Source: Minutocellus sp. GHC0000111
Taxonomy: Eukaryota
Direction of reading: 5' to 3'
Length of the DNA stretch: 64,000 nucleotides
NCBI GenBank assembly: GCA_977018835.1
Contig: OZ361258.1
Location: forward strand, 3,658,001 to 3,722,000
Below are positions 45,006 through 54,999 of the stretch, piece by piece. The position numbers and the translations under genes were made by a program. The notes under the pieces were generated by a model. It had not been told where the DNA came from and did not search any database. It saw only the letters and a list, made by a program, of their open reading frames with translations. Numbering within the stretch: position 1 is the stretch's first letter; each line of letters begins with the position of its first letter.

Positions 45006-48000
45006 ATGGCCGACACCGACCCCACCACTCGCACCAGCAACCGCCGCCGCAAGGCCGGCACCGCCACCCGGCACGTGGAATTCTCCGACTTACCGCCCGC
45101 CTCCCCGGTCCGTCCTCCGGCCTCCCTGTTCGATTCCGACGAGGACGACTTTGACGCCTCCGGAGCGCACGCCTCCTTGTTGGATTTGGCCGACGGCAAC
45201 GCCTCGGTGATGACGGCCCACACCGAGGTGAGCGTCAGCGCCCGGAGCTTTGCGAGCGTTGACACCGAGATGACCGAGAAGGCGGGCAATCGCACCGCCG
45301 GAGGGGGAGGGGGGTGGGCGAGGAACGTCCCCAGCCGCGTCGGTGTCAAAGGTGGAGGGGGGACGACGGTGAGCGCCGCCCAAGCCAAGAAGAATGCCGA
45401 ATTGGCCAAGCGGATCGCGGGATACGAGGAGCAGTACCACCAGCAGCGCGCGGAGAAGGGGAAGAAGCGGGGGAGGAATCGCAACCACTTGAACAGCGGC
45501 GGTGCGAATAGCAACAACAATGGCGGCGGTGCGGGCGGACAGGTGCTGCCCAATTCGGGATTTCAGGCCCGCGCGGCGCTGGCGGCCTCCCAGCAGGCTG
45601 TTGGTGCGGCTACCGGCGGCGGCAGTGCTTCCGGCAGCTCCCCGTCCAGCGGGGCCGGCGACGGGGCCCAGCCGGAGGCCAAGGTGGTGGCCGAGGTCAT
45701 GGCCGAGCTGGAGGCGGAGCTGGACGCCGAGGAGGACGAGGAGCGGGCGGCCGGCGTTGGCGTTGGGACCACGGAGCTGCGGAGGAGTCGGTCGTCGGGC
45801 GATCCCATCTTTGCCGGTGGTGGTGGTGGGACTGGTGGTAGCGGTGGCGGCGGCAGGAGAAGTCGGAGCAACAGCAACCAGCACGGCGTCAGCGGTGCGG
45901 CCACCCCGCCCACCGAACTCCGCCGGTACAAGTCGGCGGGACCGGAGGCGGGCGGAGGAGGGGCCGAACTGAGCAAACGCTCGACGGCCAGCTCGGCATC
46001 GGGCGCGTCGACCGCCGCGGTGGCCGGGTCCAATCCCAAGCTGGCCCGGAGCCGACGGAGGAGCTCGCACCTGACGAACAAGGAGGGGACCGCCGCGGCC
46101 GCGGCCGCCCGAAGACGGAGCAGCAACGCCAGCGGCGGCAGCGGCGATGGAAACGGCGGCCACAATCCCGCCGCGGCCGACGCCGCCATAACCACACCCG
46201 ACGTGGCCGACAAGGACGTCGAGGCGGCCGCGGCGCTGTTCCAGATGGGGCAGATGGAGATGACCAACGGCAACTTCGAGGCGGCGGCCCGATGCCTGGA
46301 GCAGGCCCTCATCATGAACCAAACCACGCTGGGGATGGACCATCCCATCGTCGGCGACGTCCAGCACAGCCTGGGACTCGTGCAGATCGAATATGGCAAG
46401 TACGAGACGGCCTGCATGACGCTGTGGGAGGCCCAGCGCATCCGCAAGCTCAACACGGATCTGGTGGGGGCGGCCGACTCGCTCCAGGAGATTGGCAAGG
46501 TCCATCGGCAGGGTGGACGGACGGAATTGGCCTTGGACGGGGCCCAGCCGGAGGCCAAGGTGGTGGCCGAGGTCATGGCCGAGCTGGAGGCGGAGCTGGA
46601 CGCCGAGGAGGACGAGGAGCGGGCGGCCGGCGTTGGCGTTGGGACCACGGAGCTGCGGAGGAGTCGGTCGTCGGGCGATCCCATCTTTGCCGGTGGTGGT
46701 GGTGGGACTGGTGGTAGCGGTGGCGGCGGCAGGAGAAGTCGGAGCAACAGCAACCAGCACGGCGTCAGCGGTGCGGCCACCCCGCCCACCGAACTCCGCC
46801 GGTACAAGTCGGCGGGACCGGAGGCGGGCGGAGGAGGGGCCGAACTGAGCAAACGCTCGACGGCCAGCTCGGCATCGGGCGCGTCGACCGCCGCGGTGGC
46901 CGGGTCCAATCCCAAGCTGGCCCGGAGCCGACGGAGGAGCTCGCACCTGACGAACAAGGAGGGGACCGCCGCGGCCGCGGCCGCCCGAAGACGGAGCAGC
47001 AACGCCAGCGGCGGCAGCGGCGATGGAAACGGCGGCCACAATCCCGCCGCGGCCGACGCCGCCATAACCACACCCGACGTGGCCGACAAGGACGTCGAGG
47101 CGGCCGCGGCGCTGTTCCAGATGGGGCAGATGGAGATGACCAACGGCAACTTCGAGGCGGCGGCCCGATGCCTGGAGCAGGCCCTCATCATGAACCAAAC
47201 CACGCTGGGGATGGACCATCCCATCGTCGGCGACGTCCAGCACAGCCTGGGACTCGTGCAGATCGAATATGGCAAGTACGAGACGGCCTGCATGACGCTG
47301 TGGGAGGCCCAGCGCATCCGCAAGCTCAACACGGATCTGGTGGGGGCGGCCGACTCGCTCCAGGAGATTGGCAAGGTCCATCGGCAGGGTGGACGGACGG
47401 AATTGGCCTTGGACTGCTACGGAGAATGCTTGCGGGTGCGCAGGGCGGAGCTCGGCGATGACAACTTGAAGGTGGCCGATGCCTACTGCGATCTGGGCCA
47501 CACGGAGGGTGATCTGGGACGGAACACCGATGCCCTCCAGCACTTCAAGAATGGTAAGCTTCAGATACATTGATGGTCTGCCGGTGACTTGAATTTTTCC
47601 GACTTCTATTATCCCCGCCATTCCACACGCTCACTTTTCACTTTATTTCTTCCTTTGACGCAAATATAGCCCTAACGATTCTGAAGCTGAACAGCATGAA
47701 CGAATCTGGTCTGGACAGCCGCAGTCAGTTGAAGCATGGCGACCAAATTTGCCATCTACTGCAAAAGATGAGCAAGATGGAGCTGGACTTTGGAGACGTC
47801 GATCATGCACTGGCACACCTGCAGGAGTTTGTGGAAACCCGGCGGCTTATCGGCCGAACGTCGGACGTGGCATACGTGGAGGCCTTGGTGAATGTCGGTC
47901 GGATTAGCAAGGATCACAATGGTGACGAAGGGACGGCATACGATGTGCTGGTGGAGGCGTTGGAGGTGTTCGATGCCAGTCGGCTGGGTGAGATCAACTA

Positions 48001-48838: not shown

Positions 48839-50727
48839 CTAAATTCGTTGCTGGCTGTTATTGTGGTGGGTAAGTTCGGCGAGATTGACACTCGGCGTTC
48901 GCCGAATGCCCATGAGCAGGCCCGCTTTTGTCACCTCGGCCAAGGACTTGGCATCCGAGGCCAATCCATCTACACCGTGGCGACGTATCTTCTTGAACAA
49001 AAAGCTCAGACGCTCCATGGCAATCTCGAGAACTTCTGGAGTGACGCAAGCATAACAGAGGCGAAAGTGCCCTGGCTTTCTTTCGCTCATGGATTCACCT
49101 GGAGTAAGAACCACTCTTGCTGCCTGCTCAATTAATCTGGCCAGTCTCCGTTCGCCTTCCCAGCTCTGTTCTGGTAAAAGAGACGATAGATCTACATAGA
49201 CCGAAATACCGGCAGCTGCATTGACGTACGGCACCACCATTTCTTCCAGCTTTTGGACGCAAATGGCGTGGCTCCAAAGCAGTGTGGCTCGGCAATCATC
49301 GAGGAAACCGTCCAAAAAGTTATCATCGGCCAATATCTCGGCCAGTATCATTTGCATCGGATGACTTAGCCCGCTGAAAATATTCAAATTCGCCAGGGCA
49401 GCCAACAACAACGTATTCTGCGAATACAGCACGCCAACGCGGAACCCGCTGGCACCAAAATCCTTGCTGAGACCATACAGCAGATGGACGTCGTCGCCAA
49501 GCTCATTGTTGAGAATTCGGACCACGGATTCAAATCCAGTTTCCCTGGGTCTGTGCACAGAAAGTGCATAGATTTCGTCCACAATGGTGTGCACTCCCCT
49601 TCCGCGAGACCATTCCACGCATTCGTTATTGTCGTGGGTCTGTAGACAACCCCGAGCGGGTCGTTTGGGTTGGTGATCAGCAATGCTCTGACTGATAGAC
49701 CCTCCCGCTCGGCCTGCAGAGCAGCTGCCTCTAATTCCACCACCGTGGGACCAAGATGTGGATTGGCCATGTGCACCGGCCAAGGCACGGTGGCAGCCAG
49801 AGCCTGCAGATCGTTCTCGAACGAGGAGTAGTACGGCGCTGGAATCAAAATGACATCACTCGGTTGTGATAGAATGAATAGCACATGACTGAGGAGAGAT
49901 GCAACTCCAGCTCCTAGAGCGCAGTGATCGGGGTCGATCCTATCAGGATCTGGACCAGGCGATGATGGACGAGCCTGTGGGACAATTGTGTCGCTACTCC
50001 TGAAACCATCGTCATCACCATCCACCTCCTCTTGGCCATGTCTGCTTGTGTTGGACATTCTTGCGGTCGCATCCAGGTCATCATCATCACGCACAGATGA
50101 TGTAAAGTCACTACTTGCAGCCCGCCGCCTTCTCCCCTCCGCAAAGAGAAATCGCCTTTCGAGCAGGTACGCTACAGCCTCGCGTGTCGCCGGGAGGCCC
50201 AGGAACCCATTGTACCCGTACACTATGGGATTGCGGAAGGCACCGACCGCTGTGTCGGAATTCATCAGACGGTTGGCCAGCATCTCCTGCACGAGCTTGT
50301 TCTCCGCCAGACAGAGGGCGATGTGTCCCTCTGGGTTGTGCAGCGCGTCACAGGGATCCTGAAGGCAAGAGATGAACCCCGCCCAGTGGGCAGGCGTCGG
50401 CGGTAGGGCGGCTCGCTGGCCGCGTCTGCTGAGAGATTGAAGGGCCGATGCCAGCGAATTGTTTGAACTGGCAGCAGCAGCAATGACATCTCCGACGGCG
50501 TCATCGATTATTGCCAAATTATCTTCGTCGTTATCATCGGGCAGTGGGAGATATCGATGATTGTGGCGGTGATGGTTCGTGCTCGGCGTTCCGCCCTTAG
50601 CATCATGCATGTATCTTCGCCTCTTGCACCGCCGCCGGGCTAATCGGGTGTAGTAAATGCTGGTGACTGCAAAAATCCCGGCCGGCAGAGTAACAAGAGA
50701 TCCGACATGTGAAAAATATTTTACCAT
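48839..50727 (-). CDS. ACC-synthase-like class I PLP-dependent aminotransferase with N-terminal membrane anchor; frameshift at about 49625
   Basis: LCLAENKL, PAPYYSSF, ITNPNDPLG, IVDEIYA, PLP-lysine motif YGLSKDFGASGFRVG and PGHFRLCYA; two overlapping ORFs. Confidence 0.85.
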
Positions 50728-50957: not shown

Positions 50958-53593
50958 ATGAAGGTCAAGGTATCGGTGTATCACGGCCCGAGCGGCAGCG
51001 GCCGGACGGACCTCGACGTTCCCTTCGTGCCCGGCGAGACGACGGTCGGCCAGGCCCTAGAGGAGGCCGCGTCCCGGCTGGCAGCCAGCGCTGCGAAAGA
51101 GGAAAGTGGGACCGATAAGAAGGAACCGCCGATGGTTCCAAATCTTCATCTCACTTCGTTGCCTTCTCAGGTTACCGCCGTGACGGACGAGTACATCGGG
51201 CAGGATTGGATCAAGAACCGCGTCCTATCGACCCACAAGAATCACTGGATGCCGAACCAGAACTATCTGCCGGACTGCGAGTGCTACAACGGAATTCTGC
51301 GCTACCACGTCGTTCCTGCGTTGGTCGGCTCCGACGAGGAGGACAGCAGCGATGATGATGATGACTCCGCTTCCAAACCCGCCAGCAGTAGCCGTGCGGT
51401 CAGTTCGGGGACCGGCATCACAAGTGGCTGCCAGCTCCGTATGGTGAGGGATTGGTCCTTCGGAAAGATGATGAACGCCTCGCAGCGGAGCGCTGTGCTT
51501 ACCAGCCCTCTGTACGAGTACCATACTCGGGAGGTATTGGAGGTGTCAGACCTGACCAGGATCAGTAGCATTCGGGTCCCAATCGATGCCAAGGGGAGCT
51601 TGCTACGTATGGACCTGTCTTGCACCGGCAAGATTGAGTCGGTCTTTAGAGAAAAGAAGGGAAGTAGCAGCATGACGTCGATTGAGGACGTTGACATTGA
51701 CCTGCCCGAGAACACGGGGCTTGGAGGTGCGACCATTGGCGATCTCAAGGCCATCGGTGAGTGATCTCTGCATATAGTTCTCTTTAGGAATATTTCCATC
51801 TCCTTTGCACCTCGATAATCCTTTCAAGTAGCCTCATCAATCACCATCCAACGTTTCTCCCCCCCCTGTAGTTGAACAGGTGATTGATGTTGATGATCTG
51901 GACTTGGGGGATTCCGCGATCAACTTTTTATCGGCGAGTCTCCGCCAGTCGGTCACCATGGAGGACAACTGTTTCGAGCTACGTCATGTCGAGCTAGAAG
52001 GCCCTGATTTCTCTCCCAAGATCGTTACGAGGCTTGAGCTTCTTGCAGAGCAGGAGCGCCGACGAGGTTCCAACGAGAAGGAATTCATTTTCGTCAAGAC
52101 CTTGACAGGGAAGACCATTTCGCTCGAGTATTCCCCATTCTTTGACGTCAATAGGGTGAAGTTCATGATTTCTCTGATAGAAGGGATCCCCTTTGATCAA
52201 CAACGCCTCGTCTTTGCCGGCAACCAGCTTCAAGATAGCCGCCTTCTATCCGAATACAACATCTCGGCCAAGAGCACTCTGCATCTCATCCTCCGCCTTC
52301 GAGGTGGTATGTACCAAGCAACTTCCGGTCGGTACGTACAAGCCTCTATGCTGCGTTCACTCTTTTTATCAAGTCGTGTTATACCTTCGCTAATTTTGAT
52401 CTTTAAATTCTCTCTTTTGCTCATTCATTTTACTATTTTGCGGGCAATACTTTAGTGAAGATTTCCTCGAGCATTTTGGTACAAAAGATCGCCAGATCGA
52501 ACTGATCTTTGCCGATAACTCAACTGGGACCATAACTGTGAATACTACCACCAAGGTCAGGTCTATCGAAAAGAGCGCACTGGCTCTTGTCAACGACAGT
52601 GGTGCTGATGATACCGATAACGAAGAAGCCATTCTGGATAAGAGAATCTTGAGCCTCAAGGCCGAACTCGAAAAGGCCGAACAGTCCAAGAAGGCCATTC
52701 TTTCCAAGAAATTTGATCGTGAGCAGGCCCTTGTAGAGATGCTTCGCCGTGAAGATGGGCTCCGCCGATCGCCCGAGTACCAAAAGGAGATGGAGGCCGC
52801 CGAGGAATCAGCCAACACGGAGTGGATGGACGTCGTTGCCAGAATCCAGGACCGTGTGGTTGCGGAGGCCAACGACGATGACAAGCCCGAGCCCATCTAT
52901 ACAGTTGAGGAGCTCCGTGAGGCGGCATCTCGTCATCCCGACATTGCCCATTGGGCCAAATTCAATCGAGCCCGTCAGGGAGACCTGAAGGAAGGCGACG
53001 AGGCCCCTGACGTTGCAATGCGCGACCTCGACGAGTCTGAAACGACCCTCCTGGAAGGGCCTCGGAAGAAGGCCAAGGTCGAGTCCAACGAGGATGGTGA
53101 TGCCAAGGCCAAGTCGAAGCCTACCGTGGTCGCTGCTGGGTCCCTCTCGTGACCACCATTCCGCTACCTTGGGCCGGCACTGGCGGAGCTTGCATTGGCC
53201 AACAAGGGAGTGGTGGATTGGAAGTTTGTCTACATCGCCGAGGCTCATGCCCAGGATGAATGGCCTATCCGGTCGGGTCGGTTCAACCATGGCCTTGGAG
53301 CTGTGATTGTAGAGAAGCAGCCGAAGAAGGCAGCCGAGCGGTGTGAGCTCGCTCGAAAGTTTGTGGAGGATTTTATGCCAAAGGCAAAAGATGCCGGCGG
53401 TGATATATCGATGCTGGTGGATGATCCGGAGCTTGGGGATCCATTTGAGAAGCAGTATGCGCCCTGGCCGCTGCGCATCTATCTCATTCGCGATGGGGTC
53501 GTGGAGTGGATTGTTCAGCCCAAGGATTGTTCGTACGATGAGGCCGTGGTGGAGCTTTGCGGTATTCTTGGAGTATCGATCGGTGACGATTAA
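50958..53593 (+). CDS. Ubiquitin-like domain plus iodothyronine-deiodinase-like selenoprotein, about 798 aa; exons 50958-51756, 51872-52331, 52456-53593; Sec TGA at 53150-53152
   Basis: Ubl domain [11 protein letters not shown]...[16 protein letters not shown]...[12 protein letters not shown]. Deiodinase motifs [36 protein letters not shown] and [11 protein letters not shown]. Both introns are GT-AG and frame-preserving. Confidence 0.88.
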
Positions 53594-53629
53594 ACGAATG
53601 CGGTGCAAATAGAGTCTACTGGGAGGACG

Positions 53630-53690
53630 TTACTGCGTAATGATGGCACGAGGGGACATTGTATGGTTCTTCGCGCTTGAAAAAGCAATT
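53630..53690 (+). promoter_or_regulatory. Putative SECIS element
   Basis: ATGA (53640-53643) ... TGA (53678-53680) core closing an ~11-bp helix GCACGAGGGGAC/GTTCTTCGCGC; short lower stem TGC/GCA; about 40-100 nt after the true stop codon. Confidence 0.6.
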
Positions 53691-53797
53691 GGCGCCGCCT
53701 ATATAGATATCTTGTTACAATTGTAGCGGTTCAAGTTCGTTCAAGAGAGATTCTTGCTATTTATTCACTTTCCGACGTACCACCATCTTTATGTTTC

Positions 53798-54849
53798 TTA
53801 TACATCGGGAATCTGTACCTTCAAAACATAGCGCCACCGAATCAATCTATTGTCTTGTTCATGAAACCATTCCATTTCATCCTCATAATCGTATATATCC
53901 CCTTCCTCGGCCTGAGGACGAAATTGTCGCATGTCACAAACGACCAGAGTCTGCTCCTCCCGTTTCCCATCTGGAGGTTCAAGCTCCTTCAGCTCAACCA
54001 AGTGCGTTTCCTCGGTCACAAATTCCGCTTTGAGTTTGTCTACCTCGGTAAGGTGGGAAATGAGCTTCGTCCGCAGGGAGGACTTACGTGCCACTTCATC
54101 AATACACTCTTGTCCGTCTTCACCAAGACCAAAGTCTTCGGCACTCTTGCTTGAAAAATGAAAAGGGACAACCACGTCTTCTTCCTGGGTGGAGGTAAAA
54201 GTCTTGATGTAATTGAGATTGTCGGTCCACTTTGCAAAGACAAAGTACGTTGTTCTCTCGGGGTTCTTCCGCAGGTAGGCGACGAGAGCATCTCGCACAA
54301 CCTTCACCAAATTGGCTTCCTTCGGATACAGAATGGATCTCAGCATGACCGCAGCGGGGGCATCTTCTGGTACAACCAACACGCTCCAAATGTCTTGGCC
54401 CTGTGGAACAAGGCCGTAATACACTAGGAAGTGAACAGCGTCCTGCAGGTCCATTTCGTGGGGAAGCACCATCTGCTTTTCTTCAGAAGTACTGGTAGTC
54501 GCGACAGCTCTCGCATACGCCTTCTTAACAAACGGGACGAGATCTGGCGCACGATGGCAGTACTTATCCCATATCGCACGAATGTTCGGGGGGCAATCAT
54601 CTACCGAGACGGCAAACGGTGACACCGCGGTACCACGATCGGTGCTGTTCCCAACCCACCGCTCGGAGGACATGGCCGAGAGGTACGAGCTGGGCAGACT
54701 CTCGAGATGCTTCTTTGGGATGGTCAGCCGGAAGGAGGGCAGTCCTTTGCCGTTGGTGTTTGTGACGAGGAAATGCACGAGATCGTCATCGCCGCCAGCT
54801 GAAGCTGCGGCGATGCAGTAGCAGCGTCGAAGCTCGTTGCCTCCGCCAT
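53798..54849 (-). CDS. Hypothetical protein with a BTB/POZ-like N-terminal segment; frameshift at about 54815
   Basis: LESLPSSYLSAMSSERW resembles KCTD-type BTB. ATG 54849 (MAEATSFDAAT) is one base out of frame with the main ORF. Confidence 0.55.
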
Positions 54850-54999
54850 GGTTGAATGTTCCGTCAATGGCGCAATGGCGGGCCCGCCCGCCCGCCAAAT
54901 AAAAGAAACCCGGAGCAATCGGGGGAACACGCATGATGTGTCATTTTTCCAGATACGCATACGCACGCCGCTCTCGAGGAACATACGATCGTAGTAGCC

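Follow-up and report, generated by a model that had tools for sequence, protein, structure and literature searches.

We analysed a 64,000-nucleotide stretch of the genome of Minutocellus sp. GHC0000111 (assembly GCA_977018835.1, contig OZ361258.1, positions 3,658,001 to 3,722,000), which we call the window and whose own numbering we use throughout. On its + strand, between the ATG at 50958 and the TAA stop at 53591-53593, lies a gene whose spliced coding sequence of 2397 nucleotides corresponds to 798 amino acids and joins a ubiquitin-like domain (Ubl) to a deiodinase-like catalytic domain. The single internal stop of this frame, the TGA at 53150-53152 (codon 652), falls at the catalytic position and is very probably read as selenocysteine (Sec), and the gene's 3' region holds a hairpin that resembles a selenocysteine insertion sequence (SECIS).

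Gene structure and transcript

A sequence-only reading of the window had joined open-frame fragments into one protein of about 798 residues through two GT-AG introns, and both the gene model and the RNA data bear this out. The coding part of exon 1 (50958-51756), which encodes a 266-residue N-terminal region, is followed by intron 1 (51757-51871, 115 nucleotides), exon 2 (51872-52331, placed from the sequence and RNA contigs) and intron 2 (52332-52455, 124 nucleotides), both introns having GT..AG ends. The stretch is present in 16 sequencing runs from four studies, eight of them recorded as RNA, and we compared four of the 16 as assembled contigs rather than raw reads. Both splice joints are seen in all three RNA runs compared (two studies) and are absent from the fourth run, whose kind is not on record; the RNA runs that carry the stretch are marine. 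One contig of 1499 nucleotides, found in two runs, covers 51475-53212 with the end of exon 1, the Ubl, both introns spliced and the TGA. This supports one spliced mRNA that encodes the Ubl and the deiodinase-fold domain. The contigs spanning the TGA list no letter difference there, neither TGC nor TGG taking its place, and the residues that had been read around the TGA and the motifs (stretches of 48 and 14 residues) are as stated. Exon 1 is an open frame from the ATG, and in the RNA it is continuous with exon 2 at its 3' part; its 5' part (50958-51474, 517 nucleotides) is covered by overlapping RNA pieces, with no single contig bridging from these to the remainder.

In the relatives P0004-P0010 the peptide across the junction at intron 2 is read straight through. 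Six close relatives have unrelated N-termini that switch to the start of exon 2 at one shared point, a pattern in their sequences that is consistent with the same intron 1 having been retained in those gene calls. Variant copies of the gene also exist. One RNA run has a 12-nucleotide in-frame insertion allele at 52003, which matches four extra residues of P0011, a 96%-identical database copy that is apparently frameshifted before the helical domain described below. A second copy, 95% identical over 53215-53572 and with a different 3' end, occurs in an RNA run, and its loose end is found also in the run that lacks the splice joints. Close relatives are 88-95% identical to the window gene in the helical region and merely 53-59% identical in the Ubl, a gap that suggests paralogs or an exchange of parts.

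The in-frame TGA

The TGA at 53150-53152, which the sequence-only reading had taken to encode Sec and not to end the frame, aligns with the residue (Sec or Cys) that is catalytic in Dio2 and Dio3. Peptide patterns found 56 related metagenome loci, some of them near-duplicates and about ten of them bacterial-type genes. The motif is recognisable in 53 of these, every one with TGA and none with TGG or TGY, and the remaining three were unmatched; under a stricter pattern TGA is found in 48 of 48 loci. A search with a fungal relative returned 54 proteins, the named ones nearly all from Glomeromycota, and at the Sec site 31 of these have Cys and one has Val, while 22 do not match the motif. The 95%-identical copy, taken from one RNA run, differs from the window gene in 14 codons after the TGA, nine of them synonymously and five non-synonymously, which is a synonymous bias with p = 0.001 if 23% is expected and p = 0.016 if 33% is expected. 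The catalytic residues after the TGA are invariant, and there is conservation on both sides of it. We consider Sec insertion at the TGA very likely.

The observation that weighs against Sec insertion is that 8 of 15 representatives spanning the site have Trp. These eight are seven unnamed metagenome gene calls and one NCBI rotifer model, and, judging from the protein entries, we take most of them for read-through by gene callers. Among bdelloid rotifers, Rotaria has this helical deiodinase-like family (the P0112 cluster), annotated either with Trp at the Sec position or as split after it.

It had also been predicted that gene callers would truncate such a protein, and this is what we see: 9 of the 11 matches in one search, and 39 of the best 150 in another, are gene models that end at this codon. 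Because gene callers cut at the UGA, the family is hidden in databases.

The catalytic domain

The catalytic domain (52973-53575) has a thioredoxin/peroxiredoxin-like fold, as judged from Pfam and from structure comparisons by Foldseek and VIA. With the TGA read as Sec, exon 3 matches the Pfam family T4_deiodinase (PF00837) with 38.8 bits against a cut-off of 27, and its structure model (predicted local distance difference test, pLDDT, 88; predicted template modelling score 0.78) shows in order a beta-beta-alpha piece, a 52-residue helix, a helical domain and the thioredoxin fold. The nearest solved folds are Dio2 (Foldseek E 1.8e-11) and Dio3 (VIA Z 19.6, root-mean-square deviation 5.1, 175 aligned residues), the next having Z 15.3; nothing in a viral structure library matched at E <= 0.001. 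The deiodinase-family identity that had been read from the motifs is thereby upheld. With Dio1-3 (PDB 9h48, 4tr3/4tr4; PMC11592359, PMC9141512) the protein shares the deiodinase insertion in this fold, the S-x-[ST]-U-P-P and Y-x-x-E-A-H..W motifs, and the arrangement of a UGA with a 3' SECIS, here a candidate one. In the Dio2 numbering of PMC11592359, it keeps Ser127, Thr129 (here Ser), Tyr157, Glu160, His162 and Trp167.

The differences from Dio1-3 are, however, substantial. The position of Phe224 is Pro337 (in 38 of 38 rows of the alignment), that of Lys241/Arg275 is Pro354 (37 of 39 rows), and that of the relay His182 is Pro288 (His in 8 of 38 rows); a W-P-x-R is invariant, as are the Pro residues where Dio2 has Phe224 and Lys241. 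Neither the proximal nor the distal resolving Cys is present, Leu229 and Ile316 standing in those alignment columns, and no transmembrane anchor was seen, the highest 19-residue hydropathy across the three exon products being 1.13; a helical domain takes the place of the anchor and a Ubl precedes it. According to PMC9141512, DIO1 stays active with T125S and with H174A, so that deiodinase-type chemistry could still be performed by the protein, yet its substrate site is rebuilt. Iodothyronine chemistry is unsupported, because the anchor, the substrate-clamp residues and the resolving Cys of Dio1-3 are absent. Judged by its sequence, the protein is a member of the deiodinase-like family and not a Dio1-3, and its substrate is probably not thyroid hormone.

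The 3' hairpin

A hairpin of type II-like form (53620-53702) lies 47 nucleotides after the stop and 488 nucleotides after the UGA, and is covered by an RNA contig piece. Its core pairs UGAU with UGAA (ATGAT at 53640-53644, TGAA at 53678-53681) and its helix II has 10 of 11 pairs. This agrees with the consensus UGAN/KGAW, with helix II and with the need for more than 51-111 nucleotides between UGA and SECIS, as stated in PMC3753652. Our own finder gave 18 matches in 128 kb (both strands of the window), two of them at this stringency, and matched 8 of 500 shuffles of this untranslated region. Among 28 related 3' regions, from which bacterial-type loci, duplicates and regions shorter than 120 nucleotides had been left out, 12 have such a hairpin, compared with none of the 28 reverse complements and a mean of 0.55 in shuffled sets. 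Rfam SECIS_1 matches two of eight related loci, at the same places as our finder and below its cut-off, and misses a canonical-looking hairpin at the locus L061.

Several observations weigh against the hairpin as a SECIS. It lacks the apical AA (as do the hairpins of several relatives), Rfam finds no SECIS match in the window's 3' region, and in 16 of the 28 related regions no hairpin was obtained. Moreover, the whole 187-nucleotide 3' region folds at the level of its shuffles (z +0.64), and the z of -2.47 for the hairpin itself holds for limits chosen afterwards. An alignment of the 12 candidates with MAFFT left their cores unaligned, so that no covariance model was made. Of the SECIS-like hairpin that had been claimed, the core and helix II thus stand while the apical AA and a database match are missing, and we consider the window's SECIS to be probably real but non-canonical.

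The ubiquitin-like domain and its junction

The Ubl (52084-52308) ends in LRLRGG and is followed directly, in the spliced sequence, by MYQATSGR, as the sequence-only reading had it. Exon 2 matches Pfam ubiquitin (PF00240) with 62.4 bits (cut-off 25.4; E 3.4e-17), and a hand count on the alignment gives 49 of 74 residues identical to ubiquitin, which at about 66% is not near-identity; the I44, K48 and K63 positions are changed. The domain is internal, with some 337 residues preceding it. The motif after the GG (52309-52459) is split by intron 2 and has the family form M[FY][HQ]xTSGR. Like the known ubiquitin fusion precursors (polyubiquitin, Ub-eL40), the protein has a beta-grasp domain ending in RLRGG with an in-frame extension, and its GG is followed by M as in polyubiquitin. 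It differs from them in that the Ubl is divergent and internal, the partner is a selenoenzyme and the cleavage is predicted.

Deubiquitinases cut fusions between RLRGG and the residue that follows. Across the family, 57 Ubl domains stand directly before the M(F/Y)(H/Q)xTSGR motif, and 52 of them end in GG, as against none of 40 internal repeats; this retention of GG solely at the motif junction suggests cleavage. In a model of a full-length fungal relative the Ubl and the catalytic module fold apart, and residues 74-106 have pLDDT below 50, so that the junction is likely to be exposed. On the other side, the GG counts are inflated by close kin, which supply many of the rows, five of the 57 junctions have no GG, a viral fusion (L021) has none either, and GG and motif could together serve structure or binding and never be cut. 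The sequence-only reading had left it at a protein either tethered or released after GG; of the two, release is better supported than a plain tether, and from the sequences we regard cleavage between GG and M as somewhat the likelier outcome. Cleavage alone would leave unexplained the conservation of the motif after the GG and the persistence of the module as a separate gene with a tail of about 30 residues. A complex prediction for the fungal Ubl and motif (P0085, residues 1-96) with the catalytic module (residues 105-390), in which alignments were not used, scored 0.13 against a mark of 0.34, and we count it for neither side.

Related loci

Comparison across lineages indicates that the module formed by Ubl, GG and M(F/Y)(H/Q)xTSGR is tied to the enzyme in three ways, namely fused, neighbouring, and linked by a second UGA. 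The fused form, whose conservation the sequence-only reading had named as a check, is found in the window gene, in P0004-P0010 and P0013, in the green algae Edaphochlamys and Chlamydomonas, and in Glomeromycota; in the search with the fungal relative the Pfam domains ubiquitin and T4_deiodinase occur together in 29 of the 54 proteins, often accompanied by additional Ubl repeats and a ZZ finger. In arbuscular mycorrhizal fungi the Cys-type family is expanded (e.g. P0049, P0182, P0191), its members having as many as six Ubl repeats together with a ZZ finger. These fungal fusions are visible in public databases as automatic annotations, and we found no paper on the expanded fungal Cys-type family. 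In the neighbour form, separate genes for Ubl, GG and motif with ordinary stops lie beside the enzyme gene at three loci, L011, L046 and L061, the last on a giant-virus contig; the stand-alone Ubl genes of L046 and L061 have only a tail of about 30 residues, which bears the motif. The motif also stands near the N-terminus of members that have no Ubl (P0132, L042).

The third form concerns the 14 of the 56 loci that have a Ubl match. Wherever the Ubl is upstream and on the same strand (12 of 12 loci), it shares the enzyme's reading frame and is separated from the enzyme by a TGA, which is the sole stop in 10 loci and is accompanied by TAG in two. We list this second in-frame TGA for L001, L002, L004, L005, L008, L013-L015, L022, L027, L032-L034, L038 and L041 (e.g. 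L002:499-501, L004:825-827, L013:1147-1149), on contigs that may be genomic or cDNA. In a quick tree the loci form six separate branches, and one of these groups with the window gene and a Bacillariaceae diatom protein (support 97). Five of the six lineages end the frame with TAA or TAG. Re-initiation behind the second UGA is made less likely by three lineages in which the first Met after it stands within the conserved helical domain. The context of the second UGA is not conserved. Weighing against a second recoded codon are possible introns of length 3n that would remove it in 9 of the 14 loci examined (none in L001, L003, L032, L038 and L042). As an alternative we considered that UGA is a general codon for Trp or Cys in these lineages, which we reject: all eight frames inspected (373-1075 codons) hold exactly two TGA and 5-11 TGG.

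On the contig L061 (1101-2790), from a metagenome-assembled genome of a giant virus, a gene for Ubl, GG and motif precedes a deiodinase-like gene by 47 nucleotides. The latter has TGA at its catalytic position and is followed at about 2815-2895 by a canonical-looking SECIS with AAA (z -3.98). At L021:3422-4750, on a 341-kb contig of a viral collection that is shared with L057 and L064, a degenerate Ubl without GG is followed by a ZZ finger, the helical domain and a UGA-containing deiodinase-like domain, the same layout as in the fungi but with Sec. The SECIS-like hairpin of this locus does not fold better than its shuffles. Six of the eight viral pattern matches are unrelated, and prokaryote genomes gave only two partial loci. 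An alignment search for long homologs (960-2740 amino acids) found none, which is weak evidence, and beside the loci inspected no E1-like or conjugation gene was seen.

Other parts of the protein and neighbouring genes

Further beta-grasp-like stretches had been proposed upstream of the Ubl. These were not confirmed in exon 1, which has no match to Pfam, to our own ubiquitin hidden Markov model, in HHalign or to P0013, and whose Atlas leads are all below 0.85. After the GG there is a predicted beta-beta-alpha piece (52490-52591; strands at residues 11-16 and 22-27 and a helix at 33-44 of the model) with a weak likeness to the first half of the ubiquitin fold (HHalign E 0.0097, probability 4%). 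It is followed by a predicted 52-residue helix (52613-52768), a coiled-coil-like spacer near the end of which the relatives' second UGA falls, and by the conserved helical domain (52736-52969; L95, E98, R102, W122, Q130, R153 and P160 of exon 3). This domain occupies the position where Dio proteins have their membrane anchor and linker and matches no Pfam family; since the fold searches were filled by the thioredoxin domain and barely probed the helical one, we do not claim a new fold.

Downstream, a loose end with a run of T at 53740 is probably the poly(A) site of a convergent gene (53798-54934, - strand, 378 amino acids, no Pfam family), and bounds the short 3' region of the selenoprotein gene. 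Upstream and head to head with the selenoprotein gene lies an aminotransferase class I/II gene (48839-50727, - strand), which seems to continue in another frame near 49855 through an intron or a frameshift. Long open frames on both strands (45006-47570, +; 45093-47621, -) cover a GC-rich TPR-repeat gene. One neighbouring gene has a signal-like N-terminus together with an ASAF-type motif; like the nearest named homolog, the tree and the marine RNA runs, it points to a diatom-like alga as the host.

Discussion

Deiodinase-like selenoproteins outside animals are already known; for their partnership with a Ubl we found no description. Such proteins are listed for Dictyostelium (with none for T. 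pseudonana; PMC2375036), Gonapodya (bioRxiv 10.1101/314781), algae (PMC7539508) and Sargasso bacteria (PMC1088965). As far as these texts go, they share PF00837 and Sec at the same position with the window protein and give no tested function, and they mention no ubiquitin fusion, motif after GG, neighbouring Ubl genes, second UGA or giant-virus copies. A ubiquitin-deiodinase is absent from the novel fusions listed in the text of the algal survey, whose domain figure and supplement may bear on novelty, and ubiquitin is unmentioned in the available text of PMC6627142. Full-text literature searches, which reached few subscription papers, likewise turned up no account of either the fusion or the motif, nor of the second UGA or the giant-virus copies. 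The sequence-only reading, too, had not recognised the fusion as described.

How might such a gene work? We propose that the gene product is a precursor: the 3' hairpin would recode the UGA to selenocysteine, and host deubiquitinases would cut after RLRGG, leaving a Ubl whose GG is open and a fragment that begins M-Y-Q-x-T-S-G-R. Once released, the soluble enzyme would serve as a selenol reductase, together with the module of Ubl and motif, on a substrate probably other than thyroid hormone. Selenium supply would gate the enzyme half: without read-through the window gene would yield a Ubl-helical product, and in six other lineages, where the second UGA comes right after the Ubl module, the Ubl module alone. 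Taken as a whole, we give this scheme even chances. By analogy with Dio1-3 it seems quite likely that Sec is the group attacking the substrate and that Ser/Thr, Glu and His pass on a proton, and with no resolving Cys an outside thiol would recycle the enzyme. As to the substrate we can only guess, with a slight leaning towards a peroxide, a disulfide or an oxidised residue, and ranking a halo-aromatic lower, as a tentative second choice. Since the module travels with the enzyme even as a separate gene, it is likely to be the enzyme's working partner and not only an expression tag.

The alternative that survives best, though we consider it unlikely, is that the protein is never cut and that the attached Ubl directs the selenoenzyme towards ubiquitin receptors, the proteasome or p97, with GG and motif as a binding surface. 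The extra Ubl repeats without GG and the ZZ zinc fingers of the fungal members, the degenerate Ubl of the viral fusion L021, and a motif conserved beyond what a cut site needs would all suit such a tether. However, GG is retained only at the motif junction, I44 and K48 are changed in the window Ubl, and separate neighbouring Ubl genes are unable to tether in cis.

Slightly less probable is that the enzyme truly dehalogenates iodo- or bromo-tyrosines or thyronines, the Ubl being an accessory. Dio2 and Dio3 do stand clearly above the other thioredoxin-fold matches, the proton-relay core is kept and the RNA runs are marine. Against this, the Phe224, Lys241/Arg275 and His182 positions are Pro, there is no transmembrane helix, and the family has expanded in soil fungi and also occurs on giant-virus contigs; bacterial deiodinase-like proteins, too, were judged unlikely to act on thyroid hormones in PMC1088965. 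Thus the iodine or halometabolite chemistry of a marine alga, which the sequence-only reading had suggested, finds no support, given that the anchor, clamp and resolving Cys are absent and that Cys-type fusions are expanded in mycorrhizal fungi of the soil.

One could also imagine, with still lower probability, that the module is the enzyme's substrate, its motif peptide being modified by the Sec enzyme, or its modifier, the freed Ubl being attached to the enzyme as Urm1 is to Ahp1. Urm1 and Ahp1 come from separate genes and involve an activating enzyme. Their pairing of a ubiquitin-like protein with a peroxiredoxin-fold enzyme (PDB 7q5n) resembles the present one, and Ahp1-Urm1 is among the fold relatives (Z 12.0), whereas here a ubiquitin-type Ubl lies in cis or next door. 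The stand-alone Ubl genes that adjoin the enzyme gene at L046 and L061, and the motif near the N-terminus of Ubl-less members, would fit either role; but no conjugation gene was seen beside the loci inspected, the motif is undocked in the single-chain model, and the likeness to Ahp1 is at the level common to all peroxiredoxin folds. Finally, that the TGA truly stops translation, or is the lesion of a pseudogene, with an untranslated frame behind it has very little chance of being right: the SECIS loop is non-canonical with no Rfam match and P0011 is apparently frameshifted, but the same TGA recurs across distant lineages, fungal homologs have Cys, and the codons after the TGA show synonymous bias and invariant catalytic residues.

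Beyond the scheme proposed above, a broader reading, which we regard as speculative and on balance improbable, is that of a two-part Ubl-selenoenzyme system of eukaryotes and giant viruses. Here, in several lineages, the SECIS would read through the UGA stop of the Ubl gene, selenium would switch between the Ubl alone and the fusion, and the enzyme would act on or with the processed Ubl, the window gene being the fixed-fusion end of the range.

Non-animal deiodinase-like selenoproteins have been listed since 2005-2007, and a conserved partner module offers a first handle on their role. The Cys-type fungal fusions could be expressed and assayed without Sec technology. The presence of the UGA gene and a SECIS on giant-virus contigs implies that the viruses draw on the Sec machinery of their hosts. 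The second in-frame UGA, if true, would be an unusual kind of Sec recoding, namely a gene fusion gated by selenium.

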